From an uncultured bacterium (GTDB lineage: Bacteria > Fidelibacterota > UBA2242): 40,744 nucleotides of DNA. The notes beneath the pieces are model-generated. The model saw only the letters and a program-made list of their open reading frames with translations. It did not search any database and was not told where the DNA came from. The first letter of the stretch is position 1; the number at the start of each line of letters is the position of its first letter. Shown one piece after another: positions 1 through 21,054 of this stretch. The stretch spans positions 62,000 through 102,743 of the forward strand of contig CAZPRY010000010.1 in assembly GCA_964589175.1 (NCBI GenBank), read 5' to 3'. The position numbers and the translations under genes were made by a program.

Positions 1-81
1 AAAGCGGGGTTCCGGCTTCGCCTCCAAATTAACCAGTAAACCAGTTAACGAATCAACCGGCTAATTATTTCATCTTTTAGA

Positions 82-1389: not shown

Positions 1390-1416
1390 TTGACTCCTTT
1401 GTCTGTCGCGCGGCAA

Positions 1417-1615
1417 TCTAAAGAATTATCGGCAATGGGGAAAGGGTTTATGTCGTATTTTGTCCGGTTGGATGAGATCGAGAGTTACCGCAATATTTTG
1501 CCGCATCAGCTGCGATTAAAGCGGACAGCTACCCGACAATAATACGTTGATCCTATCGTGTTCTGTGTTAAATTAAATTGATTTATTCAGAGGAGTTTTA
1601 CTCAAAGAATATTGT
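1417..1615. promoter_or_regulatory. Divergent intergenic region between the lipoprotein gene (-) and the ABC exporter operon (+); AT-rich, likely to hold both promoters
   Basis: 199-nt AT-rich spacer separating divergently oriented genes. Contains TTGATC and TAAATT-like hexamers, but no -35/-10 pair could be assigned rigorously by eye. Confidence 0.3.
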
Positions 1616-3328: not shown

Positions 3329-3330
3329 AG

Positions 3331-4959: not shown

Positions 4960-4998
4960 CTATAAAAACCAGATTCGCCAGTTTCGTTTTCGCATGAG

Positions 4999-7900
4999 AT
5001 GAGTAGAAAAGATCTACGACTTATGACGAATGAATCGACTAAGAATATCTTTCCACTGACGTCCAATCAAAAGTTGATTTGGAGCGAACAGCGGATTTAT
5101 CCGGTATCACCGCTGTACAATATTTGCACCTACATCGCCATAGACGGATTTGTCGATCCTGATTTGTTGCAGCGCGCAACTCAGATCGTGATCGATCAGA
5201 ATGATGCATTGCGTCTGCAATTTCTGGAAATCGATGACGAGCCTTATCAGCAGTTTCTTCCTCACCTTTCATACCAGCAGTCGAGTCTCGATTTCTCCGG
5301 CGAAGACGAACCCGTTCAGGCTTGTCTGGACTGGATGCAGACGCAGAATGAACGGTGTCTGGACATTAGCAGTGCTCCTCTTTTTCAGGCGGCATTATTA
5401 AAAGCTCGCCCTCAGCAGTTCTTCTGGTATTGCAAGATTCATCACCTGATCAACGACGGTTGGGGAAACCAGGTTCATATGCGGAAGATCACGGAAGCCT
5501 ACAATGCGCTGCTCCATCGAACGGATAGCTCTCCGGGCTTCCCGTACCGGGATTACATCGCAGCAGAATCGAATACTACCGATGCCAGGGATGACCGAAA
5601 AAGTATGGCTTTCTGGCGGGAGTATTTAAAACCATTGCCGCCGGCCCTTTTCAGGCAGCGCCCGGATCGGAAAAACATTAAAGCAGCCCGGACGTCCGCG
5701 CGTCAATCGCTCTCGATCTCCCGGGACCTGTATAAACGATTGTCCGATTTTGCGGCGGATCGGGAAATTTCGTTGTATCATCTATTTCTGAGCGTGATCT
5801 ATCTGATTTTCAGTCGTCTTCGCGATACCCGGGATCTAATCATCGGTCTTCCGGTTCTCAATCGCTCCGGGCAGAAGCACAAGTCGGGTTTAGGGCTGTA
5901 CACCGGAGTTTCATTGCTGAGAGTCCGACCGGGGTCCGGAGAGACCATAGCGGAAATAGTGACGTGGATACGATCGGAACTCCGCCGGATCTACCGTCAT
6001 CAGCATGTACCGTTATCAAAGATCAGATGGCGTTTATTTTCCAAAGAAGCGAACAAAGTGACCTTGTCCAGTCTGTCGGTCTCCTTTCTGGATCACCACC
6101 TGGGCCTTCGATTCGGTGAGGCTGTCGGGCAACTGAGAACGCTGTCCAACAACCATCAGCAGTTGCCGCTGACGATTTATATCCTCAAATATGATGATTC
6201 CGCAGACGCCCAGGTTGAATTCGATTATCACCTGTCCTATTTTACGCCGCAGGAAATGGCGCGAATCACCGGCCGCTTTTCGGAGACTCTCAATCTGGTT
6301 ATGGATAATTATAAAAAGCCGATCGATCAGATCGATATATTTACGCAGGAAGACAGAGAGCTGCTGGTCGGTTGTTCTGGTCCGGGGAGGTCAACGCTTC
6401 CGAAAAATGAAAGTCTTGCTGAACCGTTGAGCCAGGTGACGGAGCCAGCCAGCGGGCAGTCTGCCATCATGGTTGAGCGAGACGATCAAGCTCAGTGCGA
6501 AACGAACAGCGCCGAAACCAGATTAATCAATCTCTGGAAAAAAATCTTCATTCGAAAAAAAATCGGCAGAGACGATCATTTCTTCGAAATCGGTGGCCAC
6601 AGCCTTCTCGCGACGCGTCTCGTATCCATGATACGGACTGAATTTCAGGTTGAAATTCGATTGATAAGTATTTTCGATAATCCTGTTCTAAAGGATTTGG
6701 CCGTCCGGATTAGTTCGCTGGAAAAGGCCGCCAGGCGTTCTATACCGGTTGCAGATCAGAAAGCCTTCTATCCGGTCACTCCTCAGCAGCAAAATCTCTG
6801 GATTCTGTCCCATAAGCCGGGCGCCGGCAATATATACAATATTCCGATGGCCTTTCAGATTGGCGGAGGGATTGATAAAACCGCATTAGAGTCGGCTTTC
6901 CAGTCGATTGTTCAGAGGTACGAGATTTTACATACGGTGTTCATCGAAGAGGATGGTGTTCCATTTCAGCGCGTACTGGAAGATTATGGTTTCCATCTGA
7001 TCGAGCATGATTTGCGTCACGAAGCCGATAAAGAAGCTGCGGCGCGGCAAATTATCGAACAGTATGCCACAGAAAGATTTGATTTAGAACAGGGTCCCCT
7101 ACTAAAAGTGATTTTGCTGGAGTTGGAAAAGAACCGGCATGTACTGCTGATCAATATTCATCATATCATCATGGATGGTTGGTCTTGCGAAATATTGCTC
7201 CGTGAGCTCTCCGCGGCATATCGAAATCTGCCGCCATCGAGTACCGCTCCTTTGCTTCAATATAAAGATTATGCTGTCGGGCACGATCGTAAGCTAAGCG
7301 ATGGATCGCGGGAGACGCAACACGAGTACTGGAAAACCAAACTTAGCGGGGATTGGCTCCCGCTGGCCCTGCCGATGGATCACCCCCGACCTGCCCTTAT
7401 GACTTATCGCGGCGACCGGCTGCGACTGAATTTGCCTTCCGGTATTACCCGGGCTTTAGGCAATTTTGCCAGGACTCACGATACCAGCCCTTATATGCTC
7501 CTCACCGCCTTGGTCAAAATATTACTTTATCATTACAGCGGCCAGGACGATATCGTAGTCGGAACAGTGAATTCCGGAAGAACATCTGAAGAATGTATCG
7601 ATATCATAGGCTATTTTGTCCAGACGCTGCCATTACGGGATCAGGTAATTCCGGAAGAGCACTTTTCGCTCCTGCTCCAACGCGTGAAACAGACGATTCT
7701 CGAGGCCGACGCCAACCAGGACTATCCGTTTGAACGGATTGTTAAGGATTTGGATTTGCCGCTTGATCCTTCCCGTAATCCGCTTTTTGACGTATTTATT
7801 TCATATCAGGATAGTGAAGATTTTAAACTGGAATTGAAAGCACTAAGCGTCGAGAAATACGAGTTCGCCTATCCGATCAGCAAGTTTGACCTGAGTTTCG

Positions 7901-10900
7901 TTTTTGAGCAACGTGGCGAAGATCTTGCCCTGGATATCGAGTTCAATACGGATCTTTATCGACGTGACCGGATCGAGCGAATGGCCGGGCATCTGATTGA
8001 ACTTATTCGAAATGCGATGGCGCATTCGGATCGCCGTATTATGGATCTGTCGATCTTAAGTAAACGGGAGCGAGAGCAGATCCTGGATGAGTTTAATCAC
8101 GCTTCATCATCATCCCCGGATGACCGAACGATTGTAGAATTATTCCAGGAGCAGGTGCTAAAGTCTCCCGATCGGACCGCGGTGGAATTCGGGCAAAGCC
8201 GGATCAGTTATAGAGAATTGGATGAAGAGGCTGAAAAAGCAGCCCATCGTCTCCGCGAACAACATCGGGTTCAACCGGGAGATATTGTCGCTGTACTGCT
8301 GGAGCCATCCGAGCGATTTATCATCTCTATAATGGGAATTTTGAAAGCGGGTGCAGCCTATCTGCCGATCGATCCGATGGCTCCGACTGAGCGGGTTCGG
8401 TTCATGTTGCGTGACAGCAGCAGCGAGGTGTTAATCAGCGATGTCGCCGGTTTGCAGGAGGTCGATGCAATTCCTGATTTAATCGTCGTGGATATTGATG
8501 AAGTACGAACGAGCGAATCCCAAATCGCAAAGAACCATGAATCCCGCGCCCCAAAAGCGGGTCCCGATGATCCGGCATATATGATCTATACTTCGGGTAC
8601 GACCGGCTTCCCGAAAGGGGTGCTGATCGAGAATCGCTCTCTGGTGAATCTCATTTACGCTCAAAAACGCCAGATAGGTTTTACGCAGGACGAACGGCAT
8701 CTCTTGTTCTTTTCGATCTCATTCGACGGATCGGTTTTCAATATTTTCCTGGCCCTGCTTAGCGGCGCTTGCTTGTTGATCCCGAAAAAAGAAATTCTGC
8801 TGGAGCCGGAAAACTTTTGCCAATTCCTGGTTGATTCCGGAACAACTTCACTGATCGTAACGCCTTCTTTTTTACATCAGTTATCCCGGGAAAAATTTCC
8901 GACAATCCGGTGGATCGGTACCGGCGGCGAGCCGGTCATCGCGGAAGACGTTGCTTACTATAGTGCCCGGATGGATTACTTTAATTTTTATGGGCCGACC
9001 GAAGCCACAATCGTGGCGATCAGCTGCCGATTAACGCCGGAGAGCAGCCAACGGGATCTGATTGGAACCCCGGTAGATAACTGCGACATCTTCATACTGG
9101 ATGAATCGATGAATCTGCGGCCGGTCGGGATTGCGGGCGAGATATGTATTGGCGGTGCCGGACTGGCAAAGGGGTACCTGAACCGACCGGAACTCACGGC
9201 CGATAAGTTCGTGACAAATCCGGTTAGGACAGGGGAACTGCTCTACCGCACGGGGGACTATGGTTGCTGGTTGCCGGACGGATCGATTGAATTCTTCGGC
9301 CGCCGGGACAACCAGGTTAAAGTGCGCGGATATCGTGTTGAGTTGGATGAAATCGTGGCGACACTGCATAAGTATCCGGGCATAAAGCAGGCGGTTGTCA
9401 CGACAAAGAAATCTGATTCCGGCAACGCGCGATTATTGGCGTATGTCTCCGGGGATCAACTGGAGCAGAATTCGAAAACGGTTGCAGAAATCAGGGATTA
9501 TCTACAAAAATCGCTACCGTTTTATATGCTTCCATCTTCCATCGTTGTCGTACCCCAAATCCCGCTCACAATTAACCAAAAGGTTGATTTTAAACGGCTT
9601 TCCGGCATGGAGGTAAAGGTCCGGGGAACGATTCCCGCGGCCGATAAAGCTGTACGGAAACTATGCGAAATTTTCGGGACCGTTCTGGGGGTCGAGATTT
9701 CCGGTATCCAGCCAGCTGCCTATTTTTTTGATCTGGGCGCAACGTCATTTGATTTAATGAAAGTTCGCGGAAGAATCAGAACTGTTCTTGGCATAGAAGT
9801 TCCCATTACGGCTTTTTTCCAACATCCGTCGATCAATGAGCTGGCCGCTTATATCGCCTCCGGTCAGAAGAAAGAAAAAATTGATCCGGTCCGGGATTCC
9901 GGAACCATCCCGAAAAAGGACAAGATCGCGATTATCGGGATGGCGGGTCGCTTCCCGGGTGCTGAAAATATTACCGAATTCTGGAACAATCTTATCGAGG
10001 GCAAAGAAACCATCCATTTTTTTACAGAGGAGGAGCTGGAAAATGAGGGCCTTCCGCCTGATTTATTCCGGGCTCCGAATTATGTAAAAGCCTTTGGAAT
10101 GCTCTCCGGAGCGGACTGTTTTGATTCCCAATTTTTCTCCTATCCCGGGTCGTGGGCGGAGTCCCTGGATCCGCAGATTCGTATTTTCCACGAAGTTGTA
10201 TATGCGGCGTTGGAAGATGCCGGGGTAGCGCCCGGCGCTTTCCCGCACCGAATTGGACTCTATGCCGGCTCGAGCGATAACTATCGCTGGAGACGATTCA
10301 TTCAAGGAGCCGGTCAAACCGGGGAAAACGAGGGCTGGATCGATTATATGCTGGCAATTCGTGATTTCCTGACGACTCATGTTGCCTATAAACTAAATCT
10401 GAGGGGTCCGGCTGTTTTTGTGCAGACCGGTTGTTCTACTTCCCTATCCGCCACTCATATGGCGTGCCGGTCTCTCCAGATGGGGGAGTGCGAGCTTGCT
10501 ATTGCCGGGGGAGTGACGGTATCGCTGCCTTACGATAAGGGCTACCATTATGAGGAGGGGATAATTTTCTCTCCGGATGGACATTGCCGTGCTTTTGATG
10601 CGGAAGCATCCGGTACGGTTCCGGGCAATGGCGCCGGAGCTGTTGTTTTGAAACCGCTGGAGCAGGCCGTCCGCGACGGCGATTACATTTATGCAGTCAT
10701 TGCCGGAACTGCGATGAATAATGACGGTTCGCTGAAAGCCGGTTTCACCGCGCCGGCTGTTGAAGGGCAGGTCCAGGTGATCCGGGCGGCCCGGCAAGAA
10801 GCCGGTTGCGATGTGGAGAGTATTGGATATGTCGAAACCCATGGTACCGGAACGATATTAGGCGATCCGGTTGAGATATCCGCCCTGGAGCAGGCTTTTG

Positions 10901-13900
10901 CTTCGGAAAAGCGGCAATTCTGTGCCATTGGATCGCTGAAAACCAATCTCGGCCATCTGGATGCAGCCGCGGGGGTGGCGGGTTTGATCAAGACCGCACT
11001 GTCCTTAAACTTTGCTAAGATTCCGCCCAGCCTGCATTTTAAAACCCCCAATCCACAGATTGATTTTGAACACAGCCCGTTCTATGTGAATACGGAGTTA
11101 AAAGAGTGGCCACGACAGGGAACGAATGCCGATCCGATTCGCAGAGCGGGGGTCAGTTCTTTCGGGATTGGCGGAACCAATATGCACATGATCCTGGAAG
11201 AGGCGCCGCGACCCGAGAATATTCCAGCAGGAACGAATCCACTGCCCCGGATTCTTCCCCTTTCCGTGAAAGATCCTGACACCCTAAACAGGATACGAAC
11301 GAATCTGGTCGATTTTCTACGCAAACATCCCCATTCCCGACTCCAGGATCTATCCTATTCTTTGCAGTTCGGACGTGAAAGCCATGTATATCGCCATGCC
11401 TTTACCGTCGTGAATGTCGAAGAGGCAATCCTAAAATTGTCAGATTCGATTTCACCGGATAAAATTATCAAGACCGACATTACGAAATCTTCCAAAATCG
11501 TTTTCCTGTTTCCCGAATCCGGAACTGATTTCCTGGCGATGGGACGCGACTTATACCGGTGGTACCCGAGATTCAGACAAGAGATAGACAGCGGTAATGA
11601 GTCGCTAAGGAAGATTGCCGGCACAGATGTAAAACCCCTGCAGATTGCCTCGGATAGTTCATTTTCATTGGACCGGGATGGGGAGGACTCCGAAATCGCT
11701 CGCCTGGTGTTGGTGATTTTCGGGTACGCCCTCGGAAAACTGCTTGAAAGTTGGGGGGTGCGCCCGGATGCCGTTGCCGGCTACGGTTTGGGAGAATATA
11801 CCGCGGCTTGTTTTTCCGGGATCATGACGCTTGATGAGGCGCTACAACTGGCGCTGGAACGAAACGAACTCCTCACACTTGCACAGGATGCGTCAACTGC
11901 CCGGCCCACAAAAAGAGTACAACAATTTTCTTTACAGACGCCCCGAATTCCTCATTTGTCAGGTTTGTCGGGGGCCTGGATCACGGATCAGGAAGCCCGG
12001 GACAGCGGCTACTGGCAGAATCGATTCAGCCAGACATCTCCTTTCGCAGCAAAGCCGCAAGAGCTCCTGGCAATCGAATACGCGATTTATATCGGGTTTG
12101 GGTCAGATAATCTGTTCACGGAAGCTTTTCAGGAGCACCCGGATCGCGGGCCGGGCCAGCAGCTCATAAATCTGTTCCCAGGTTCGGATCAGGAGAAAGC
12201 GAGTCCCGCGTATCTCCTCAATCGGATTGCGGATCTTTGGTGCATGGGATCTATGATCGATTGGACGGCGGTTTATCCCGGTCCGCATCGAAAAATTCCC
12301 CTGCCCGGCTATCCGTTTCAACGAAAGAGATTTCCCGTCAAGCCGCCGGTCACTCAGCTAAATCAGAATTTCGTGTCGGAAAAACAGGAAGAGCTGGAGA
12401 ATTGGTCCTACGTGCCATCATGGGAACGTGTCCCGTTCGGGATAGATGAAGATAGTGAAACAGTCGTGATATTGCTTTTTTCGGACGGAAATCCGCTGGA
12501 ATATCAATTCCTCGAATACTTCCGGTCCAGATCACTCAAATTTATCACGGTCGGCAGCGGAGCACAATTTATACGCAGCAGCGCTGACCGATTTTACATC
12601 CGACCGACAGAACGCGACGACTATCTGGCGCTTTTCCGGCAACTGGCCGATGAAGATTTGGTGCCGGATAAGGTAGTTCATCTTCGATCATTGGATATAA
12701 GGGTCCGGGAGTCAGAAAACCTTGAGGATGCCCTGCAGAAAAGTTTCTATGGTCTCCAGCATATCGTAGCTGCCCGGACTTCCTGCGCTATTCATAATCC
12801 CGTTTCCCTGATTGTGGTTACCGAGAATCTTTTTGAGGTTCAGGGCGACGAAGAGATCGATCCAATCAAAGCACTGGTCACGGGACCTGTTCTGACGATT
12901 CCGCAGGAATATCCGGAAATTCGGATCTCTCTTATCGATATCGATCCGCTTCAAATTCGATGGAAAGGCGCGACCCGGCTACCGGCCCGCCTGCTGGCGG
13001 AAGGTAGAGATCGCCCCGGGCATGAGATTATCGCTTATCGCGGTCGCTATCGATGGAAAAGGAAATATACGCCAATTCCGTTAAAAGAAGCTTCGCCGGG
13101 CGATCTACCGCTTCGTAATAAGGGAAGCTATTTGATTACCGGAGGCTCCGGCGGGATAGGTTTCAGCATTGCGAAATACCTGGCCGGTAGCTATCAGGCG
13201 CGCCTGGCGTTGGTGGCCCGCCGGGGAGTTTCCGATGAGATGCAACAAACGCTGAAGGAACTCGGGGCAGACGTATTGGCATTTTCAGCGGATGTTGCAG
13301 ACTACCGTGAAATGCAAAAAGTCTTTAGCGCAGTGGCGGAACGATTTGGGAGGATTGACGGAGTAATACACGCTGCGGGAGTAGCGGACGGGGCGGTTAT
13401 CCAGAATCGAACCCGGGAACAATCAGAACTGGTTCTGGAACCGAAGGTGTCGGGTACTCTGAACTTGCACAGACTGCTGGAAGGCAAACAAACAGATTTC
13501 GTCCTGCTCTGTTCCTCGCTGGCATCCGTCATACCGATTATTGGTCAGTTCGCCTACTGCTCGGCAAATGCCTTCGAGGATGCGTTTGCGAACAAAATGA
13601 GTAATTCGGGCGACACTCGTTGGTGTTCGGTCAGTTGGGACAGATGGCTGGATGTTGGCATGGCCGCCCGGTTCCTGGAAGGTCATGAAGGCGGACAGAT
13701 CGGGATTCATACGGATGCCGGAATCGAAATTTTTAAACGGATTCTGAACAGGCAAGAACCCCACATCATCATATCAACTGGAAGTCTGGATCCGCAAGTT
13801 GAAAAGCTAAGAGATACGAGATCCGTTTTTTTGGAATTGAAACACAGTGCCGGGATCAGAAATACTGAATCGATTGATGGAGAGCTTCTTGCGGATACGA

Positions 13901-16900
13901 ACCATAACCGTTCGGAAGTGAAAAATATCGTTCTGAATATCTGGCGCGACATCCTGACCCTGCCGGATCTGGACGCGGATACCAACCTGTTTGATCTCGG
14001 TGTGGACTCGCTCAAGATTATGGATGCTGAATCCAGAATTCAGAAGCAGTTCCGCAAAAAGATTCCGATGGCTGAATTTTTCCGTTTACCGACCGTTCGG
14101 GACCAGACTGCCTACCTGAGCGGTTCCGAAAAAGAGGTCTCCGATTCAATCCCTCGCCAGGCGGAAACGGCTTACTATCCTGTATCTTCTGCGCAAAAGC
14201 GATTGTTTATTCTCCAACAGCTGACAGCGGATAATATTCTTTATAATCAGCCGGCTGTGTTGCGGATTGAGGGTAGTATCGAACCCGCAAGACTGGAGAG
14301 CGCATTTCGAAATCTGATTGAGACAGTTGAGGTATTTCGCAGCTCTTTTCATCTCGTCGAAGATAATCCCGTCCAGGTCATCCATCCTCTGGAAGAGATC
14401 GATTTCCATATCGAATTTTCAAGAGTGATGGGCGAGCCCATCGATGTCGATGAAATCATGGCTGACTTTTTACAGCCGTTCGATCTGTCGAAGCCTCCTT
14501 TAATCAGGGTAAAACTGCTCGAAACGCTTACGGGGATAACGTTTCTTCTGATCGATATTCACCACATAATTAGTGATGGCAGTTCCTATATTGAACTGTT
14601 CGATAGTATTGGCAAACTCTACGCCGGAGAGAAGATCACTCCCCCCAAAATACGATTCAGAGATTATGCGGTCTGGCAGCAAAACCAGAAAGCCCTACAG
14701 GAGTATTGCGAGCAGGGAAAGTACTGGCTGAATGAATTTTCCGGGGAAATACCGATTTTACAATTGCCAAACGATTTTTGTCCCGGCACCGATCCGGATT
14801 TCTGGGGTGATCACCTGGAGTGCAGCATTGGTGTCGAGGAAACCCGGGCGATTAAAGCACTGGCCCGTGAGCGCAATACGACGCTCTTCATCGTTCTTTT
14901 GGCGGCGTTTAAAATCCTGCTGGGCAAGCTCAGCGGACAGGAAGATTTGATTGTCGGGACGCCTACGGCAGGACGCCGAAGGTCGGAGTTTCAACATCTG
15001 ATCGGCATGTTTGTCGATACCCTGGCGATTCGTAGTCGGCCCCAGAAAGAAAAGACTTTTAACGAGTATCTCAGTGAAGTGCAGGAAAAGGTTCTCAAGG
15101 CGTTTGAAAATCAGGAGTACCAGTTTGAAGATCTGGTAGAGGCGCTGAACGTTACCCGCGTCTCCGGAGAGAATCCCATCTTTAATGTCATGTTCATTCT
15201 CCAGAATATGTCAAAACCGGCGTTGTCGCTCGATAATCTGAAGATCTCGGTGCATCCCTGGAAAAAGAAGCTATCCCTGTTTGATCTTACGTTGGAAGTG
15301 ATCGAAGAGGGCGCGGAACTGCGACTCGGTTTTGAATATTCAACCTGGCTTTTTCAGCGGGAGACGATCGCTCAATATGCGGATTACTACCGCGAATTAC
15401 TTCACTCCATTGTGGCGGCGCCGGACTCACCGATAGCGGAAATTCAAATGCTGCCGCCGGCGATGCGGGAGCAGATTCTCCACGACTTTAGCAATTCCGG
15501 TTCAGCATTAGCGGAAGAAAAAACGGTCATGGAGATTTTCCACGAGCAACTGCTGAAGTCTCCCGATCGGACCGCGCTGAAATTCGGACAATACCGTCTC
15601 AGTTACCGAGAACTGGATGAAGAGGCGGAGCAAGTAGCCCATCGTCTTTGCGAACAGCATCGGATTCAACCGGGAGATATCGTCGCTGTACTGCTGGAGC
15701 CATCCGAGCGATTTATCATCTCTGTACTAGGAATTTTGAAAGCGGGAGCGGCGTATCTGCCGATCGATCCGGTAACTCCGACTGAGCGGATTCGGTTCAT
15801 GTTGCGGGACAGCTGCAGTGAGGTGGTAATCAGCGATGTTGCCGGTTTGAAGAATGTCGCTGCAATTCCTGATTTAATTGTCGTGGATATTGATGAAGTC
15901 CGAAAGAAAGAATACCAAACCGCAGAGAGCCATGCGTCCCCCGCCCAAAAAGCGAGCCCGGGCGATCCGGTATATATGATCTATACTTCGGACACGACCG
16001 GCTCCCCGAAAGGGGTGCTGATCGAGAACCGCGCGCTGGCGAATCTCGTATGTGCTCAAAAACGCAGACTGGATTTTACTTCGGATGAACGGCATCTTTT
16101 ATTCTTTTCGATATCGTTTGATGGATCGGTTTTCGATATTTTCCTGCCGCTGCTCAGCGGCGCATGCCTTGTGATCCCGAAAAAGGAAGTTCTGCTGGAG
16201 CCAGAGAACTTCTGCCAATTCCTGGTTGATTCCGGAACGACTTCGCTGATCGTAACGCCTTCCTTTTTACATCAGATACCCGGAGAAAAATTCCCGAAAA
16301 TCCGGCGTATCTGCACTGCCGGCGAGCCCGTCATCGCGAAAGACGCTGCTTACTATAGCGCCCGGATGGATTATTATTGTCACTATGGACCAACCGAGAC
16401 TACGATAATGGCAACCTGCTGTAAATTATTGCCGGAGAGCCGTGAACGGAATCTGATCGGAATTCCCATAGATAACTGCGATATCTTCATATTGGATGAA
16501 TCGATGAATCTGCAGCCGATTGGGATCGCGGGCGAGATATGCGTTGGCGGCGCCGGACTGGCGAGAGGGTACCTGAACCGGCCGGAACTCACGGTTGAGA
16601 AGTTTGTGGTGAATCCGTTTAAGACCGGGGAACTGCTCTATCGCACGGGAGACTACGGTTGCTGGTTAGCGGACGGTTCGATTGAATTCCTTGGCCGGCG
16701 TGACCAGCAGGTAAAATTACAGGGATATAGGATTGAACTCGCGGAGATTGAAAGCCGCATCATGAACTACCCCGATATCGATGGGGCGGCGGTCTTGCTC
16801 AGAGCTTCGCAGGAAGATCGGCAATTGTGGGCTTATATAATCAGCCCAAATGGAAAATTTTCCCTGGATGAGATCAGAAAATATCTGAAAGAATTCCTGC

Positions 16901-19900
16901 CCGAATATATGCTCCCCACCGGCTTTTCTCTTGTTGATAATTTTCCGCTTACGGTGAACGGGAAGATCGATCGGGACGCTCTCGCCAGATTAAGCGATGG
17001 GGAAACTCAGGTACTGACAAGTGCTGATTTTCAAATGCCTCGGAATGATCATGATCGAAGGCTGGTCAAGATCTGGTCGCAACTGCTTTTAAACGAGAAA
17101 ATCGGCCTTCACGATAACTTCTTTGAGTCAGGCGGACAGAGCCTCATGGGCGTACTGTTACTAGCAGCCATTGAACAGGAGTTTCGTGTAAAACTTCGAC
17201 TTCTCGATATTTTCCGGTACCCGGTACTGGCGGATATGTCAGATTTAATCCTCTCGCGATCCCCAAATCAGGGAAAATCCATCTCCCGGCTTCCGGCCAT
17301 GGATCACTATCCGGTTTCAAATGCCCAACGCCGTCTATGGATCTTGAGTAATATCGGAGCCGAGACCGGCGCCTATGATATCGCGGGGACCCTGTTGCTC
17401 AAAGGACAACTGAATCGTGGAGCCCTCGAACGGGCAATCCAAAGAATTGTTGAGCGACACGAATCGCTGCGGACGGTTTTCATCGTAGTTAAAGGAGAAC
17501 CGCGGCAGAAAATCCTTGAAAAACCGGATTTTCATATTCGTATAAAATCGATCGGAAATTCCTTGCAGGAAGAATTCAATCGGAATCTGAAAGAGCGGTT
17601 CGACCTGCAGAAAGGACCTCTGTTCAAGGCGATCCTTTACCCGATCGCCGATGACCGGCATATTCTTTTCATAAATATGCATCACATCATCAGTGACGGT
17701 TGGTCGATCAGCGTTTTGACCAGGGAACTGGGCCAGCTGTACGAAGCATATCTTCATGGGATCAGCGATCCGCTGGCAACTCTGCAATATCAGTATAAAG
17801 ACTACACTGCCTGGCAAAACAAGATGCTGGGCAGTGATGAGTTCGCTGAACACCGGCGTTTCTGGCATACGAAACTGGCCGGTGAGTTGCCGGTTATGAA
17901 TCTGCCGATCGATATAGCCCGTCCATCGGTTCGAAGTTTTCAGGGCGATGCGGTGAGACTTATGCTCGATAAAGCGCAGACCCGCGATTTGAACCGTCTG
18001 GGCGTAAAACAGAATGTTACTCTTTTCATAATCCTGAAAGCCCTGGTCAGTGTTCTGCTGCATCGCTACAGCAATCAGGACGATCTGATTATCGGTACCA
18101 GCGTGGCGGCCCGGGAACGCAAGGAGCTATTTGATCAGATAGGATTTTTCGTCAATACACTGGCGTTGCGAACCACGATCAGCACGGAAGAGCCTTTTTC
18201 CGTATTGCTCGAACGAACCAAGATTGAGATGCTGGATGCGTATGAACATCAATTGTATCCCTTCGATTTGCTGGTCGAGGAACTGAAAATTGAACGGGAC
18301 ATCACCCGGAATCCCATATTTGATGTCATGCTGGTACTCCAGAATAACGAGCCGATGAATCTGGTTTTTGGTGGGCTGGTTTGCGAGGAGACCGATCTTG
18401 ATTATGCTTTCAGCAAATTCGATCTGACATTTAACTTCCGCGAAATGGACGGCGACCTGAAACTCAATCTGGAATATAATACGGATATTTTCCATCGTGA
18501 GCGAATTGAACGAATGGGCGGCCATTTCGAGATGTTGGTGAAGGAAGTACTCCGCGATAGCGACTGTCCGATTGGTAAATTACAGCTGCTGACCGCGTCC
18601 GAAACGCAGATGTTGCTGGGGAGATTCGGAGAGCCGGAAGTCGTTTTTCCGGTTAAAGAGACCATCGTATCAATGTTTCGACGGCAGCTGGCGCAACGCG
18701 CGGATGCGACGGCGCTGCTCTATCAAGATCGCGAAATGACCTATCGCGAACTGGACGAGCGCTCGAACGCCGTCGCAGCACGATTGAAAACAGTCGGAGC
18801 TCTCGAGTCAAATAAAATTGCCGCAGTCATTCTCGATCGTTCGGATCTGGCTGTCGCAGTATTTTTAGGTATTCTGAAAGCGGGAGCGGCCTACCTGCCG
18901 ATCGATCCGGATTATCCACCGGAACGGATTCGCTATATGCTGGCCGACAGCGCCGCTACGGTGCTGATCACCGAGGAGAAGCATTCCGGGGAAGCACGGA
19001 AAATCATTGGCGATTCGCTTTCGGTATCGGAAATTATCGAGATTGAAAAGATTGATAGCTCTCCGGAATATAAAGAGGAACATTTTAATTCCGATACCGC
19101 GGCCTACATCATCTACACCTCCGGGTCGACTGGAAAGCCCAAGGGCTGCATTATTACACATCGAAATCTTATCTCCCTCATTTTTAATGATCGCTTTCCG
19201 TATAAATTCAGTGCGGACGATGTCTGGATCTCCGCTCATTCGTTCTGCTTCGATTTTTCGGTCTGGGAGATGTACGGGGCGCTCCTTTTCGGCGGGCGTT
19301 TCGTGATTATATCGCCGGACGAAGTACGCAGAACGGATCGCTTTCTGGATTTGCTGATCGAACACCAGGTTACCGTCCTGAATCAGACCCCAGGCGCTTT
19401 TTATAATTTGATCGAGGTTGAGAAGCAGCGCGAGTCTCACGATCTGGCCGCGCATCTGCGTTACGTGATTTTCGGCGGAGACCGCCTCGATCCGCACTAT
19501 CTGAAGCCCTGGCTGAAGAACTATCCGCTCAACCGGATTTCTCTGATCAACATGTTCGGCATAACCGAAACCACCATCCATGTCACCTATGGTCCTCTGA
19601 CGGAAAAGGATATTCTCGCATCAACGGGTACGAGTCCGATTGGAAGGCCGTTACCGGATCTGAATGTCTATCTGTTCGATGAGCAGATGAACCTGGTACC
19701 CGTGGGTGTACCCGGGGAGATTTGGGTCGGTGGTCCGCAAGTCAGTCCCGGCTACCTTAACCGTCCGGATCTAAACCGGGAGCGTTTTATCACCTCGCCT
19801 TTTAAGGCAGGGGAGACGCTCTACCGCAGTGGCGATCTCGCCGGATGGAATTCGGATGGCAGCCTCGAGTATCTGGGGCGCAATGATCACCAGGTTCAAG

Positions 19901-21054
19901 TACGCGGATTTCGAATCGAACCGGCCGAGATCGAGCGCATGCTGTGCATGATTCAAACCGTTGAACAGGCCCTGGTGCTTTATCGTGAAATCCAGGCATT
20001 CGGACAGTCACGCCTGGCGTTGATTGCTTACCTGACTTCGGAAAATGACATCGACCAGCGTAAGTTGCGCCGGGAGCTCAAGGAATTCCTGCCGGATTAT
20101 ATGATTCCCGAATACTTTATCCGTCTTGGGGAATTTCCGCTTACTTCGAATGGGAAGATCGATCGCAAAGCGCTGCCGCTGCCCGGTCAAAATCCGGTCG
20201 AATCGGCATCATCCGCCCTTCCCGGCAGTGATTTGGAACGAGAAATTCTGGAGATTTGGCAAGAACTACTGGGCATCCGGGAGATCGGCGTCTATGATAA
20301 CTTTTTTGAGATCGGCGGCAGTTCGCTGCTGATTATCCAATTGCATTCCATTATTGAGGAGAAGTACCCCGGTAAAACCCGGATTACGGATCTGTTTTCG
20401 CATGCGAATATAGCAGCGCTGGCGGATTTCATTTCAGGCGCTGAAGAGGAAATGTCAAATGTAGCGGAGCCCCTGTTGTTTCCGGCGCGATATTTTGGCC
20501 GGATCCGGGGTGAACCGAGCGAGTTCCGGTTTGAGATTAAAGATGATCTCTATCAAAAGATTCGAGATCTCTGTTCGAACGGATCGATCGGATGCCTGGA
20601 TTTTTACGTAAGCGCGGTCATCTATCTTCTGTATGAAATTACGGAACAGGATCAGATCCAGCTGTTAATGAATTTGGCCGAAGCGGATGCATGGTATCTT
20701 TTCAAACTTGATCTGGCGGCGATCGATGGTGTGACCGAGTTGATTAAATTCGTGAAAGAGTCGCGGAATCGCAACGGCGATGGCACCCGGTGGGAAGATC
20801 TACAGGGACAGTATGAATTTACTGCGGATCACCACGTGGTTCCGATGATCCGCTTTAATTCCTCGAATCGCACGGCAGTACGAGGTCGACAGACAGGTGA
20901 TTTTTACCTGGAATTTTCCGAAAAGCGCGATCGACTTGAGGGTGTTTTACAGTGTGGCGATCGGTTCAATCGAAAGATGATCAGAGGTATTCTGGATCTG
21001 TATATGGAAGTCCTGCAATCGTTTTTACAAGAAATAGAACATGAAATTCGTTAA
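4999..21054 (+). CDS. Hybrid NRPS-PKS megasynthetase: C-T | C-A-T | KS-AT°(degenerate)-KR-ACP | C-A-T | C-A(Thr)-T-[C-terminal ~210-aa region]
   Basis: Uninterrupted 5351-aa ORF. Condensation HHxxxDG motifs: HHLINDGWG, HHIIMDGWS, HHIISDGSS, HHIISDGWS. Adenylation cores: YTSGTTGFPKG, YTSDTTGSPKG and YTSGSTGKPKG, plus YGPTE, YRTGD and NGK/NQK motifs. Carrier Ser motifs: GGHSL, LGATSF, LGVDSL, GGQSL, GGSSL. KS motifs: TGCSTSL, HGTGT, NLGHL. KR: GGSGGIG and YCSAN. Start uncertain (ATG 4999 or ATG 5023); no strong SD for either. Confidence 0.95.
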   Translation: MSRKDLRLMTNESTKNIFPLTSNQKLIWSEQRIYPVSPLYNICTYIAIDGFVDPDLLQRATQIVIDQNDALRLQFLEIDDEPYQQFLPHLSYQQSSLDFSGEDEPVQACLDWMQTQNERCLDISSAPLFQAALLKARPQQFFWYCKIHHLINDGWGNQVHMRKITEAYNALLHRTDSSPGFPYRDYIAAESNTTDARDDRKSMAFWREYLKPLPPALFRQRPDRKNIKAARTSARQSLSISRDLYKRLSDFAADREISLYHLFLSVIYLIFSRLRDTRDLIIGLPVLNRSGQKHKSGLGLYTGVSLLRVRPGSGETIAEIVTWIRSELRRIYRHQHVPLSKIRWRLFSKEANKVTLSSLSVSFLDHHLGLRFGEAVGQLRTLSNNHQQLPLTIYILKYDDSADAQVEFDYHLSYFTPQEMARITGRFSETLNLVMDNYKKPIDQIDIFTQEDRELLVGCSGPGRSTLPKNESLAEPLSQVTEPASGQSAIMVERDDQAQCETNSAETRLINLWKKIFIRKKIGRDDHFFEIGGHSLLATRLVSMIRTEFQVEIRLISIFDNPVLKDLAVRISSLEKAARRSIPVADQKAFYPVTPQQQNLWILSHKPGAGNIYNIPMAFQIGGGIDKTALESAFQSIVQRYEILHTVFIEEDGVPFQRVLEDYGFHLIEHDLRHEADKEAAARQIIEQYATERFDLEQGPLLKVILLELEKNRHVLLINIHHIIMDGWSCEILLRELSAAYRNLPPSSTAPLLQYKDYAVGHDRKLSDGSRETQHEYWKTKLSGDWLPLALPMDHPRPALMTYRGDRLRLNLPSGITRALGNFARTHDTSPYMLLTALVKILLYHYSGQDDIVVGTVNSGRTSEECIDIIGYFVQTLPLRDQVIPEEHFSLLLQRVKQTILEADANQDYPFERIVKDLDLPLDPSRNPLFDVFISYQDSEDFKLELKALSVEKYEFAYPISKFDLSFVFEQRGEDLALDIEFNTDLYRRDRIERMAGHLIELIRNAMAHSDRRIMDLSILSKREREQILDEFNHASSSSPDDRTIVELFQEQVLKSPDRTAVEFGQSRISYRELDEEAEKAAHRLREQHRVQPGDIVAVLLEPSERFIISIMGILKAGAAYLPIDPMAPTERVRFMLRDSSSEVLISDVAGLQEVDAIPDLIVVDIDEVRTSESQIAKNHESRAPKAGPDDPAYMIYTSGTTGFPKGVLIENRSLVNLIYAQKRQIGFTQDERHLLFFSISFDGSVFNIFLALLSGACLLIPKKEILLEPENFCQFLVDSGTTSLIVTPSFLHQLSREKFPTIRWIGTGGEPVIAEDVAYYSARMDYFNFYGPTEATIVAISCRLTPESSQRDLIGTPVDNCDIFILDESMNLRPVGIAGEICIGGAGLAKGYLNRPELTADKFVTNPVRTGELLYRTGDYGCWLPDGSIEFFGRRDNQVKVRGYRVELDEIVATLHKYPGIKQAVVTTKKSDSGNARLLAYVSGDQLEQNSKTVAEIRDYLQKSLPFYMLPSSIVVVPQIPLTINQKVDFKRLSGMEVKVRGTIPAADKAVRKLCEIFGTVLGVEISGIQPAAYFFDLGATSFDLMKVRGRIRTVLGIEVPITAFFQHPSINELAAYIASGQKKEKIDPVRDSGTIPKKDKIAIIGMAGRFPGAENITEFWNNLIEGKETIHFFTEEELENEGLPPDLFRAPNYVKAFGMLSGADCFDSQFFSYPGSWAESLDPQIRIFHEVVYAALEDAGVAPGAFPHRIGLYAGSSDNYRWRRFIQGAGQTGENEGWIDYMLAIRDFLTTHVAYKLNLRGPAVFVQTGCSTSLSATHMACRSLQMGECELAIAGGVTVSLPYDKGYHYEEGIIFSPDGHCRAFDAEASGTVPGNGAGAVVLKPLEQAVRDGDYIYAVIAGTAMNNDGSLKAGFTAPAVEGQVQVIRAARQEAGCDVESIGYVETHGTGTILGDPVEISALEQAFASEKRQFCAIGSLKTNLGHLDAAAGVAGLIKTALSLNFAKIPPSLHFKTPNPQIDFEHSPFYVNTELKEWPRQGTNADPIRRAGVSSFGIGGTNMHMILEEAPRPENIPAGTNPLPRILPLSVKDPDTLNRIRTNLVDFLRKHPHSRLQDLSYSLQFGRESHVYRHAFTVVNVEEAILKLSDSISPDKIIKTDITKSSKIVFLFPESGTDFLAMGRDLYRWYPRFRQEIDSGNESLRKIAGTDVKPLQIASDSSFSLDRDGEDSEIARLVLVIFGYALGKLLESWGVRPDAVAGYGLGEYTAACFSGIMTLDEALQLALERNELLTLAQDASTARPTKRVQQFSLQTPRIPHLSGLSGAWITDQEARDSGYWQNRFSQTSPFAAKPQELLAIEYAIYIGFGSDNLFTEAFQEHPDRGPGQQLINLFPGSDQEKASPAYLLNRIADLWCMGSMIDWTAVYPGPHRKIPLPGYPFQRKRFPVKPPVTQLNQNFVSEKQEELENWSYVPSWERVPFGIDEDSETVVILLFSDGNPLEYQFLEYFRSRSLKFITVGSGAQFIRSSADRFYIRPTERDDYLALFRQLADEDLVPDKVVHLRSLDIRVRESENLEDALQKSFYGLQHIVAARTSCAIHNPVSLIVVTENLFEVQGDEEIDPIKALVTGPVLTIPQEYPEIRISLIDIDPLQIRWKGATRLPARLLAEGRDRPGHEIIAYRGRYRWKRKYTPIPLKEASPGDLPLRNKGSYLITGGSGGIGFSIAKYLAGSYQARLALVARRGVSDEMQQTLKELGADVLAFSADVADYREMQKVFSAVAERFGRIDGVIHAAGVADGAVIQNRTREQSELVLEPKVSGTLNLHRLLEGKQTDFVLLCSSLASVIPIIGQFAYCSANAFEDAFANKMSNSGDTRWCSVSWDRWLDVGMAARFLEGHEGGQIGIHTDAGIEIFKRILNRQEPHIIISTGSLDPQVEKLRDTRSVFLELKHSAGIRNTESIDGELLADTNHNRSEVKNIVLNIWRDILTLPDLDADTNLFDLGVDSLKIMDAESRIQKQFRKKIPMAEFFRLPTVRDQTAYLSGSEKEVSDSIPRQAETAYYPVSSAQKRLFILQQLTADNILYNQPAVLRIEGSIEPARLESAFRNLIETVEVFRSSFHLVEDNPVQVIHPLEEIDFHIEFSRVMGEPIDVDEIMADFLQPFDLSKPPLIRVKLLETLTGITFLLIDIHHIISDGSSYIELFDSIGKLYAGEKITPPKIRFRDYAVWQQNQKALQEYCEQGKYWLNEFSGEIPILQLPNDFCPGTDPDFWGDHLECSIGVEETRAIKALARERNTTLFIVLLAAFKILLGKLSGQEDLIVGTPTAGRRRSEFQHLIGMFVDTLAIRSRPQKEKTFNEYLSEVQEKVLKAFENQEYQFEDLVEALNVTRVSGENPIFNVMFILQNMSKPALSLDNLKISVHPWKKKLSLFDLTLEVIEEGAELRLGFEYSTWLFQRETIAQYADYYRELLHSIVAAPDSPIAEIQMLPPAMREQILHDFSNSGSALAEEKTVMEIFHEQLLKSPDRTALKFGQYRLSYRELDEEAEQVAHRLCEQHRIQPGDIVAVLLEPSERFIISVLGILKAGAAYLPIDPVTPTERIRFMLRDSCSEVVISDVAGLKNVAAIPDLIVVDIDEVRKKEYQTAESHASPAQKASPGDPVYMIYTSDTTGSPKGVLIENRALANLVCAQKRRLDFTSDERHLLFFSISFDGSVFDIFLPLLSGACLVIPKKEVLLEPENFCQFLVDSGTTSLIVTPSFLHQIPGEKFPKIRRICTAGEPVIAKDAAYYSARMDYYCHYGPTETTIMATCCKLLPESRERNLIGIPIDNCDIFILDESMNLQPIGIAGEICVGGAGLARGYLNRPELTVEKFVVNPFKTGELLYRTGDYGCWLADGSIEFLGRRDQQVKLQGYRIELAEIESRIMNYPDIDGAAVLLRASQEDRQLWAYIISPNGKFSLDEIRKYLKEFLPEYMLPTGFSLVDNFPLTVNGKIDRDALARLSDGETQVLTSADFQMPRNDHDRRLVKIWSQLLLNEKIGLHDNFFESGGQSLMGVLLLAAIEQEFRVKLRLLDIFRYPVLADMSDLILSRSPNQGKSISRLPAMDHYPVSNAQRRLWILSNIGAETGAYDIAGTLLLKGQLNRGALERAIQRIVERHESLRTVFIVVKGEPRQKILEKPDFHIRIKSIGNSLQEEFNRNLKERFDLQKGPLFKAILYPIADDRHILFINMHHIISDGWSISVLTRELGQLYEAYLHGISDPLATLQYQYKDYTAWQNKMLGSDEFAEHRRFWHTKLAGELPVMNLPIDIARPSVRSFQGDAVRLMLDKAQTRDLNRLGVKQNVTLFIILKALVSVLLHRYSNQDDLIIGTSVAARERKELFDQIGFFVNTLALRTTISTEEPFSVLLERTKIEMLDAYEHQLYPFDLLVEELKIERDITRNPIFDVMLVLQNNEPMNLVFGGLVCEETDLDYAFSKFDLTFNFREMDGDLKLNLEYNTDIFHRERIERMGGHFEMLVKEVLRDSDCPIGKLQLLTASETQMLLGRFGEPEVVFPVKETIVSMFRRQLAQRADATALLYQDREMTYRELDERSNAVAARLKTVGALESNKIAAVILDRSDLAVAVFLGILKAGAAYLPIDPDYPPERIRYMLADSAATVLITEEKHSGEARKIIGDSLSVSEIIEIEKIDSSPEYKEEHFNSDTAAYIIYTSGSTGKPKGCIITHRNLISLIFNDRFPYKFSADDVWISAHSFCFDFSVWEMYGALLFGGRFVIISPDEVRRTDRFLDLLIEHQVTVLNQTPGAFYNLIEVEKQRESHDLAAHLRYVIFGGDRLDPHYLKPWLKNYPLNRISLINMFGITETTIHVTYGPLTEKDILASTGTSPIGRPLPDLNVYLFDEQMNLVPVGVPGEIWVGGPQVSPGYLNRPDLNRERFITSPFKAGETLYRSGDLAGWNSDGSLEYLGRNDHQVQVRGFRIEPAEIERMLCMIQTVEQALVLYREIQAFGQSRLALIAYLTSENDIDQRKLRRELKEFLPDYMIPEYFIRLGEFPLTSNGKIDRKALPLPGQNPVESASSALPGSDLEREILEIWQELLGIREIGVYDNFFEIGGSSLLIIQLHSIIEEKYPGKTRITDLFSHANIAALADFISGAEEEMSNVAEPLLFPARYFGRIRGEPSEFRFEIKDDLYQKIRDLCSNGSIGCLDFYVSAVIYLLYEITEQDQIQLLMNLAEADAWYLFKLDLAAIDGVTELIKFVKESRNRNGDGTRWEDLQGQYEFTADHHVVPMIRFNSSNRTAVRGRQTGDFYLEFSEKRDRLEGVLQCGDRFNRKMIRGILDLYMEVLQSFLQEIEHEIR
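5059..6370 (+). other. Condensation domain C1 (N-terminal, starter-type position)
   Basis: HHLINDGWG at ~5441. No adenylation domain follows before the next carrier domain. Boundaries approximate. Confidence 0.8.
6505..6725 (+). other. Carrier domain T0 (PCP)
   Basis: DDHFFEIGGHSLLATRL with GGHSL at ~6592. Confidence 0.8.
6766..8095 (+). other. Condensation domain C2
   Basis: FYPVTPQQQNLW N-terminal motif; HHIIMDGWS at ~7160. Confidence 0.85.
8125..9630 (+). other. Adenylation domain A1 (substrate not assignable; pocket residues approx D-G-F-I-G-G-F-I-V-K)
   Basis: LSYRELDEEAE (A1), LKAGAAYLPID (A2), YTSGTTGFPKG (A3), FDGS (A4), NFYGPTE (A5), GELCIGGAGLAKGY (A6), YRTGD (A7), GRRDNQVKVRGYRVELDEI (A8), NQKVD (A10 K). 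Confidence 0.85.
8140..9350 (+). repeat. Intragenic direct repeat, copy 1 (A1 adenylation core), ~90% nt identity to copy 2
   Basis: Long identical runs shared with copy 2, e.g. gagatat(t/c)gtcgctgtactgctggagccatccgagcgatttatcatctct and aattcctgatttaat(c/t)gtcgtggatattgatgaagt. Shadow ORFs 8479..8700(-) and 8988..9197(-) mirror 15874..16095(-) and 16383..16592(-), offset ~7395 nt. Confidence 0.85.
9640..9850 (+). other. Carrier domain T1 (atypical Ser motif FFDLGATSF)
   Basis: YFFDLGATSFDLMK at ~9730-9760. The usual GG(H/D)S is replaced by GATS, but the Ser is kept. Confidence 0.65.
9910..11190 (+). other. Ketosynthase KS1
   Basis: IAIIGMAGRFPGA at the start; active-site Cys in TGCSTSL (~10430); HGTGT (~10840); NLGHL (~10950); GGTNMH at the end. 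Confidence 0.9.
11497..12340 (+). other. Degenerate acyltransferase-like domain (AT°): GHSxG replaced by GYGLG, GQG motif absent, small subdomain shortened
   Basis: Lies in the cis-AT position after a ~100-aa KS-AT linker. VFLFPESGTDFLAMGRDLY stands in place of FLFPGQGSQYxGMGxxLY. AGYGLGEYTAA (codons 11779-11796) stands in place of GHSLGEYxA, with the Ser replaced by Gly at 11785-11787. Ends with the post-AT linker YPFQRKRFPV (~12311). Confidence 0.7.
12390..13760 (+). other. Ketoreductase KR1 (structural + catalytic subdomains), predicted active
   Basis: Rossmann motif TGGSGGIG (~13141); catalytic Tyr/Asn in YCSAN (~13555); K/S positions plausible. Confidence 0.8.
13900..14110 (+). other. 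ACP1
   Basis: LFDLGVDSLKIMD (~14000). Confidence 0.8.
14170..15480 (+). other. Condensation domain C3
   Basis: YYPVSSAQKRLF N-terminal motif; HHIISDGSS (~14557). Confidence 0.85.
15510..17000 (+). other. Adenylation domain A2 (recent duplicate of A1; P-loop variant TSDTTGSPKG; pocket approx D-G-F-I-C-A-H-I-M-K)
   Basis: Nearly identical to A1 through motifs A1-A8. Asp codon 15991-15993 replaces the conserved Gly of TSGTTGxPKG. YCHYGPTETTIMA stands where A1 has NFYGPTEATIVA. Confidence 0.85.
15530..16745 (+). repeat. Intragenic direct repeat, copy 2 (A2 adenylation core)
   Basis: See copy 1. Identity decays after motif A8 (A9-A10 subdomain diverged). Confidence 0.85.
17040..17250 (+). other. 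Carrier domain T2
   Basis: DNFFESGGQSLMG (~17131). Confidence 0.8.
17290..18600 (+). other. Condensation domain C4
   Basis: HYPVSNAQRRLW; HHIISDGWS (~17680). Confidence 0.85.
18670..20190 (+). other. Adenylation domain A3, predicted Thr-activating
   Basis: FDFSVWE (A4) and INMFGITETTIHV (A5). Positions 235/236/239/278/299/301/322/330/331/517 read D-F-W-N-I-G-M-I-H-K, against the published Thr code DFWNIGMVHK (9/10, conservative V->I). Confidence 0.75.
20215..20420 (+). other. Carrier domain T3
   Basis: DNFFEIGGSSLLI (~20316). Confidence 0.8.
20420..21051 (+). other. C-terminal ~210-aa region of unknown function; possible degenerate C-domain fragment or an inter-protein docking region handing over to the ORF2 KS
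   Basis: No HHxxxDG, no carrier or TE motifs. GCLDFYVSAVIYLLYEITEQDQIQLL weakly resembles the central TLFMxLLAAFxxLLxRYSGQ region of C domains. Confidence 0.3.

Follow-up and report, generated by a model that had tools for sequence, protein, structure and literature searches.

Probable intragenic exchange of an adenylation A-core between two modules of a hybrid nonribosomal peptide/polyketide synthase gene

The A-core repeat in ORF1

The stretch of DNA analyzed here (the window; 40,744 nt of contig CAZPRY010000010.1) comes from an uncultured bacterium and carries on its + strand a hybrid nonribosomal peptide synthetase/polyketide synthase (NRPS/PKS) cluster. Its first megasynthase gene, open reading frame 1 (ORF1), encodes the Pfam domain order C-T-C-A1-T-KS-(inactive AT remnant)-KR-ACP-C-A2-T-C-A3-T (condensation, C; peptidyl carrier, T; adenylation, A; ketosynthase, KS; acyltransferase, AT; ketoreductase, KR; acyl carrier protein, ACP). 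Two of these adenylation domains, A1 and A2, share a direct repeat that covers the A-core, the large lobe at the N-terminal side of an adenylation domain, which includes motifs A1 to A7, the hinge, and all but one of the ten specificity residues. We consider that the A-core of one module was probably copied over that of the other within this one gene, between modules that were already old. The repeat and the domains on either side of it are the following:

4999..21054, + strand: ORF1, a 5351-amino-acid (aa) hybrid NRPS/PKS (open reading frame list, Pfam domains)
6763..8085, + strand: C domain upstream of A1 (aa 589-1029), outside the repeat
8143..9327, + strand: copy 1, the A-core of A1 (ORF1 aa 1049-1443, motif A1 to the start of motif A8)
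9328..9603, + strand: A-sub of A1 (rest of motif A8 to motif A10), native
14170..15498, + strand: C domain upstream of A2 (aa 3058-3500), outside the repeat
15538..16722, + strand: copy 2, the A-core of A2 (ORF1 aa 3514-3908)
16723..16986, + strand: A-sub of A2, native

Both copies lie within Pfam AMP-binding domains (A1 matches AMP-binding at aa 1049-1394 and AMP-binding_C at aa 1455-1528, and A2 is equivalent). Both domains carry the profile pair of NRPS adenylation domains in the ANL superfamily (PF00501 and PF13193), and the best solved relatives are LgrA, TycA, and GrsA. The copies are direct, in frame, free of indels, and offset by exactly 7395 nt (2465 codons). Over the 1185 nt of the block they are 83.8% identical in nucleotides and 79.0% identical in amino acids (83 differences in 395 residues), and the longest identical nucleotide runs are one of 42 nt and one of 26 nt. 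An earlier reading of this sequence, hereafter the original prediction, had placed a direct repeat at essentially these positions in the AMP-binding domains of ORF1, and the alignment bears this out; its estimates of ~90% nucleotide identity and long identical runs were too high.

The ungapped identity profile stays at 40 to 55% in the upstream C domain, runs at 73 to 92% from ~8120 to ~9340, and then returns to background, with an edge transition that is sharp, within ~30 nt. On the 5' side, the edge coincides with the first residues of the Pfam AMP-binding match, past the C-A linker. On the 3' side, it falls inside motif A8 (GRRDxQVK), just beyond the GRxD hinge that, at the start of motif A8, parts the A-core from the A-sub (PMC11253843). 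The repeat is thus the A-core only, which stops in motif A8, and not the duplicated whole adenylation domain that had been proposed.

Outside the block, the two modules are no more alike than any other old pair. Amino acid identity is 79.0% in the A-core, and it amounts to 32.6% in the upstream C domain, 42.5% in the A-sub, and 20.3% in the T domain. The A-sub of A2 is closer to that of A3 (48.3%) than to that of A1, and the remaining A-core pairs in the window share 33 to 40% identity. The proportion of synonymous differences (pS) is 0.34 inside the block versus ~0.8, that is, saturated, in the flanking windows. This low pS between saturated flanks argues for shared DNA ancestry rather than for convergence or selection for a similar protein. 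In their upstream C, A-sub, and T domains, the two modules are ordinary old paralogues, and the module duplication of the original prediction does not hold, since only the A-core is similar and the C, A-sub, and T domains are at background identity.

No A-core from outside exceeded 41 to 43% identity in searches of one genome per species, 5.8 billion proteins, and 1.8 billion cluster representatives. Among the cluster representatives, the only closer match was the protein itself; these matches were ranked by summed multi-domain score, so that a single-domain relative of 50 to 70% identity could hide there, but the search of 5.8 billion proteins would show such a relative. A metagenome scan with the shared 42-nt run returned 0 matches.

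Nei-Gojobori estimates over the block are dS 0.447, dN 0.116, and dN/dS 0.26, and the raw divergence between A1 and A2 (16.2%) is ~60 times the 0.27% found between co-occurring haplotypes. With such values, it is only by comparison with the other modules that the duplication can be called recent, as it had been. Across the block, the distribution of synonymous differences shows no significant heterogeneity (max-chi-square permutation p = 0.15), and that of amino acid differences is only marginally over-dispersed (p = 0.046). A mosaic structure or a second breakpoint within the block was considered as a candidate and rejected on the same nonsignificant max-chi-square result.

We infer that this arrangement arose when two modules of one gene, long diverged from each other, underwent non-reciprocal homologous recombination (gene conversion). 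The breakpoints would fall within conserved stretches, one where the A domain begins (~8140) and the other in motif A8 (~9325), so that the C domain, C-A linker, A-sub lobe, and carrier domain of each module would have stayed native. Right after the event, both modules would be expected to activate the same alpha-amino acid. From then on, purifying selection would have governed most of the divergence of the two copies, whose differences are scattered over the whole block. In a relative-rate test against 120 distant A domains, 13 well-conserved columns retain the outgroup consensus in A1 and 9 in A2; the two are about equally derived overall, and neither stands out as donor or recipient.

Catalysis, specificity, and variation of the two copies

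All catalytic motifs of A1 are canonical (motifs A3, A5, and A8). A2 has unusual residues at three places:

15991..15993, + strand: A2 P-loop codon GAC (Asp3665) versus GGT (Gly1200) in A1; motif A3 reads YTSDTTGSPKG
16378..16383, + strand: A2 codons 3794-3795, Cys for the conserved Asn of motif A5 (NxYGPTE), followed by pocket position 322
16720..16722, + strand: A2 codon 3908, at the 3' edge of the block; Gln stands in for the conserved Arg of motif A8 (KIRG)

The A2 motifs read TSDTTGSPKG, CHYGPTE, and GRRDQQVKLQG versus the canonical TSGTTGxPKG, NxYGPTE, and GRxDxQVKIRG. All other A domains compared, 120/120 and 833/833, have Gly in the P-loop, with Asp in 0/953, and the other two residues are conserved to a lower degree (Asn in 754 of 838 A5 motifs, ~90%; Arg in 764 of 810 A8 motifs, ~94%). 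In other ANL enzymes, this P-loop Gly is part of the lining of the pyrophosphate pocket, and enzymes mutated at it are severely inhibited (PMC6122825). Literature searches on inactive A domains and P-loop terms found nothing relevant. Given the Asp in the P-loop and the odd residues in motifs A5 and A8, A2 may adenylate poorly or behave differently. All three residues are fixed in four haplotypes.

Variation within the population is also concentrated in A2, according to haplotype data from two proteins (P0271 and P0274) and two loci (L067 and L068). Variants of ORF2 gave the anchors by which the A2 DNA of other haplotypes was located. The A2 core holds 11 single-nucleotide polymorphism (SNP) sites, or 9.3/kb versus 3.0/kb over ORF1 to ORF3 (Poisson p = 0.001), and the A1 core holds one, with no amino acid polymorphism. 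One contig taken by itself has 8 SNPs in A2 and 0 in A1 (Fisher p = 0.008). The excess in A2 is significant for non-synonymous changes (7 versus 1.9 expected; p = 0.003) and not for synonymous ones (4 versus 1.6; p = 0.08), and the resulting ratio of 7:4 is no different from the 39:35 of the rest of the cluster (p = 0.36). Among the A2 variants are F3707L, at PheA position 234, and H3795L, at Stachelhaus position 322 (SNP at 16382), so that the A2 pocket code, with His322 in the window, reads DGFICALIMK in the other haplotypes (L067/L068). With A1 as the outgroup, the His322 of the window is a very recent derived allele. The sole SNP of the A1 core (8505, L061) is a synonymous change, A>C, to the base that A2 has at the matching position; a single site is too few to interpret. 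Taken together, A2 is the copy that is evolving fast at present, and it may be either impaired or still diversifying.

Impairment is a tentative possibility: A2 would be adenylation-impaired or decaying under relaxed constraint, and its carrier would be skipped or loaded by another A domain. The Asp at an otherwise invariant Gly, the severe inhibition seen on mutating this Gly in other ANL enzymes, the Cys and Gln at positions where A1 retains the conserved residues, and the non-synonymous SNP excess in A2, with none in A1, all point in this direction; furthermore, the assembly line contains a C-T module without an A domain, which means that non-cognate carrier loading must occur somewhere. 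They are countered by a long-term dN/dS of 0.26, a symmetric relative-rate test (13 versus 9), the intact reading frame, D235, K517, and remaining motifs of A2, the fixation of the three odd residues in all four haplotypes, and a polymorphism ratio not significantly above that of the rest. Improbable, in our view, is the stronger proposal that A2 is an adenylation-dead scaffold copy of the A1 core and that A1 loads T1, T2, and T0, the carrier of the A-less module. If this were true, the A-core copy and the non-synonymous burst, residue 322 included, would record, in a natural population, the functional release of a duplicated core.

The second matter concerns the specificity pocket, where the original prediction had seen the substitutions clustered. 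Its two 10-residue codes and quoted peptide stretches are correct in PheA/GrsA numbering: DGFIGGFIVK for A1 and DGFICAHIMK for A2 in the window. The ten canonical positions follow the list in PMC11253843. Our GrsA reference gives DAWTIAAICK at these positions. For the 34-residue, 8-Angstrom shell, we used a position list that we take to be that of NRPSpredictor2/antiSMASH. The codes of the two cores differ at four of nine positions (299, 301, 322, and 331) versus 79/386 elsewhere (Fisher p = 0.097; 21% of positions overall), and the shell at 10/34 versus 73/361 (p = 0.15). In the shell, the proportion of non-synonymous differences (pN) is 0.154 and pS is 0.50 (ratio, 0.31); in the rest, pN is 0.103 and pS is 0.32 (ratio, 0.32). 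The A4-A5 specificity segment shows a pN of 0.094 versus 0.112 in the rest, and the 15-aa bins richest in differences flank motif A3, one in a surface loop ahead of it (8/15) and one behind it (7/15). Thus, the stretches that line the pocket are not precisely where the copies differ: the 83 amino acid differences are spread along the block, densest near motif A3, and the divergence is essentially near-uniform, without pocket enrichment, the outcome that the original prediction had itself named as refuting it. Diversifying selection on the pocket was not detected either, as pocket codons have no non-synonymous excess over the rest and windowed dN/dS is at most 0.71 across the block.

These results make it rather doubtful that a recent duplication was followed by positive selection on the pocket that diversified substrate choice. 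What speaks for such selection is the difference at 4/9 code positions against 21% overall, together with the present non-synonymous excess in A2 (7 observed, 1.9 expected, p = 0.003), its two variants in the pocket shell (F3707L and H3795L), and the derived state of His322. Against it, neither enrichment is significant (p = 0.097 for the code and 0.15 for the shell), the pN/pS of the shell is close to that of the rest (0.31 versus 0.32) with the pN of A4-A5 below it, the overall dN/dS is 0.26 with a dS of 0.45 that is not recent, and the 7:4 ratio in A2 does not depart from the 39:35 of the cluster. The part of the original prediction that stands is that substrates may differ: four code changes are enough in principle, and the two A domains may choose different substrates; the signature of pocket-focused selection is what is missing. 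D235 and K517 (positions as listed in PMC11253843) are present in both copies, as in A domains for alpha-amino acids, and indicate substrates of this type; both pockets are uncharged. Both codes are absent from the searchable literature, and the nearest codes among 120 homologues share at most 5/9 positions, so no substrate was assigned.

It is unlikely that ongoing concerted evolution, in which repeated gene conversion would keep the A-cores alike while the pocket segments escape by selection, explains the similarity. This explanation would draw on the fact that 7 of the 11 A2 SNP sites fall on A1/A2 differences (p = 5e-4), with five variants equal to the A1 base, on the match of the single A1 SNP (8505) to the A2 base, and on a somewhat higher pS in the pocket shell (0.50 versus 0.32, permutation p = 0.06). 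However, when the A2 alleles are compared with the A1 base, five variants match it, four window alleles match it, and two sites match neither, and between 16298 and 16382 only three SNP sites change while 14/17 A1/A2 differences persist. This pattern is the one expected from point mutations on both haplotype lineages, with no conversion tract. Likewise, synonymous divergence does not vary significantly along the block (p = 0.15), and 16% divergence with a longest identical run of 42 nt would make a poor substrate for conversion. A gene-conversion tract in the variant haplotypes was also considered in its own right and rejected, as no contiguous run was found and 14 of the 17 paralogue differences persist there.

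Three points weigh against an A-core copied between old modules and diverging mostly under purifying selection. The pocket differences (4/9) form a weak trend (p ~0.10), and nine sites give little power. In addition, no orthologous cluster from other species was found (one-genome-per-species scan; 5.8 billion proteins); consequently, the copying cannot be proven by a module being closer to its paralogue than to its orthologue, and donor and recipient are not separable. Finally, the observations would look no different after an ancient duplication of a whole module with replaced C and A-sub-T, a history that takes more events. In that scenario, which we hold to be very unlikely, a whole C-A-T module was duplicated, and its C and A-sub-T were later replaced or diverged past recognition. 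Module duplication did happen at some time, as all modules in the window are distant paralogues, but the scenario calls for two or more additional exchanges whose breakpoints fell exactly on the A-core edges, and it has to accommodate flanks at background identity with saturated synonymous sites and an edge sharp within ~30 nt.

Four independent metagenome assemblies bear out both copies. Identical or near-identical contigs were found in several ENA, JGI, and Logan metagenome assemblies; a literature search on the sample accessions returned nothing. Contigs of at least six samples align collinearly with window positions 1-14959 at 99.88 to 100% identity and span A1 with both junctions. The gene was called at the same length, 5343 aa, in three assemblies, and two further loci cover A2. 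The original prediction had expected a likely assembly collapse at the repeat; with the same 5343-aa gene in independent k141 assemblies from several samples, it is in practice excluded. That one copy was made or altered by repeat misassembly can be discounted almost entirely: the source is a metagenome and some samples yield only short contigs, but three assemblies carry the gene at the same length, a fourth contig spans A2, the A1 junctions are on at least five contigs at 99.9 to 100% identity, and no exact run longer than 42 nt links the copies, while the contigs carry k141 names. The short-read assemblies of five samples break elsewhere, in a 600-nt stretch at the end of ORF2 (~29270-29860) and not at the A1/A2 repeat. 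This stretch is the last C domain of ORF2 (the starts of L052-L056; the contig end of L057).

Sequences that diverge by 16% are expected to be poor substrates for homologous recombination, owing to its dependence on RecA and mismatch repair. Among three full-length haplotypes, no deletion or chimeric variant was found. The suggestion that the repeats are a substrate for deletion by homologous recombination thus finds little footing, given this divergence, the 42-nt maximum run, and the lack of a deletion in these haplotypes.

The surrounding assembly line

The remaining large features of the cluster are the following:

1616-3328 and 3331-4959: two ABC exporter genes
21055..30114, + strand: ORF2, KS-DH-KR-ACP-C-A4-T-C (dehydratase, DH)
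30130..33660, + strand: ORF3, A5 (methyltransferase inside)-T-TE (thioesterase, TE), end of the assembly line

Genes for a type II thioesterase and a phosphopantetheinyl transferase (PPTase) follow downstream of ORF3. A public protein (P0122) is identical to the ORF1 product from its second Met onward. The ORF1 stop codon, TAA, is directly followed by the ATG of ORF2, in frame (21052-21057), and a single stop thus parts the two megasynthase genes. A 135-nt direct repeat (3031-3165 and 4683-4817; 76% identity) lies in the ATPase regions of the adjacent ABC exporter genes, which look like ordinary paralogues.

The first module of ORF1 (4999-6705) is a C-T module without an A domain. Its C domain, C0, is starter-like, with 20 to 23% identity to the other C domains and an intact HHxxxDG motif, and its carrier, T0, is closest to T2 (43%). 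The assembly line counts six peptidyl carriers and five A domains, so either one A domain loads a second carrier or a trans-acting A domain is encoded outside the window. As for the other A domains, the core of A3 (18673-19905) has an A5 motif, NMFGITE, that is atypical versus NxYGPTE, and the codes of A3 and A4 are DFWNIGMIHK (Thr-like) and DAFWLGGTFK (Val-like). The methyltransferase inside the A5 domain (ORF3, 30817-31188) sits between motifs A2 and A3, which is rarer than the usual site between motifs A8 and A9.

In the polyketide part, the AT remnant after the first KS (11500-11877) spans the first 121 of the 319 positions of the acyltransferase profile, and its active-site GHSxG reads GYGLGEY; it is a truncated, inactive remnant. 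The KS of ORF2 has no AT at all and, used alone as a query, finds relatives of at most 57% identity. A trans-AT gene is absent from the window. The PKS part is trans-AT-like.

Relation to known A-domain exchanges

A-core exchange dominates natural NRPS diversification, taking place between conserved motifs A1 to A8 and often over the nearly full core (Baunach et al. 2021, PMC8097286). In such exchanges, the C-A linker, the A-sub, and the A-sub/T interface stay native (PMC8097286). The block in ORF1 resembles these exchange units in its tract limits (motifs A1 to A8), its near-full A-core, and its native C-A linker, A-sub, and A-sub/T interface. The tract is limited to the A-core, and neither the C domain with the C-A linker nor the A-sub with the A-sub/T interface was co-transferred. 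Unlike those units, the exchange proposed here is read from paralogues in one gene alone, and it is old (dS 0.45).

Closer parallels come from exchanges within one genome. In the microcystin synthetase genes mcyB and mcyC, intragenomic A-domain recombination is known (Fewer 2007; Tooming-Klunderud 2008, cited in PMC8097286). There, as here, an A segment of one module was copied into another of the same cluster, leaving two positions with related A domains; the mcy event is recent, polymorphic among strains, and tied to a product change (microcystin-RR), whereas the one in ORF1 is found in all haplotypes and is known from sequence alone. In A2 of wolG1 (wollamide/desotamide), intragenomic recombination shifted specificity from Orn to Gly, as shown biochemically (Booth et al. 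2022, PMC9205934). Its boundaries also lie within the A domain, its pocket and P-loop were replaced, and its C-A interface was kept, but the donor was in a different cluster, while in our case both partners are in the same ORF and the event is likewise read from sequence. Engineered subdomain swaps and A domains of the hormaomycin type (Crusemann 2013; Kries 2015, in PMC8097286) are similar in that highly similar paralogues differ in specificity residues, which is the pattern that the original prediction envisaged. In both, however, the variable part is a discrete A4-A5 pocket subdomain, whereas the A4-A5 segment here is no more diverged than the rest (pN 0.094 versus 0.112).

In nature, nonribosomal peptides change residues mainly through A-core swapping between modules, a process that also guides NRPS engineering. 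The locus would represent an old intragenic A-core exchange with textbook boundaries, an ordinary feature of NRPS evolution. Because these boundaries match published rules, it adds a data point rather than a new principle, and it offers a clean example of exchange in a hybrid NRPS/PKS of an uncultured organism with no close public relative. A2 may be an impaired or released copy or one in continuing specificity drift. With its fixed P-loop Asp and ongoing amino acid polymorphism that includes a specificity position, the otherwise intact A2 is a testable natural case, which would reveal a P-loop variant that is tolerated or else an A domain that is losing or changing its function after duplication.

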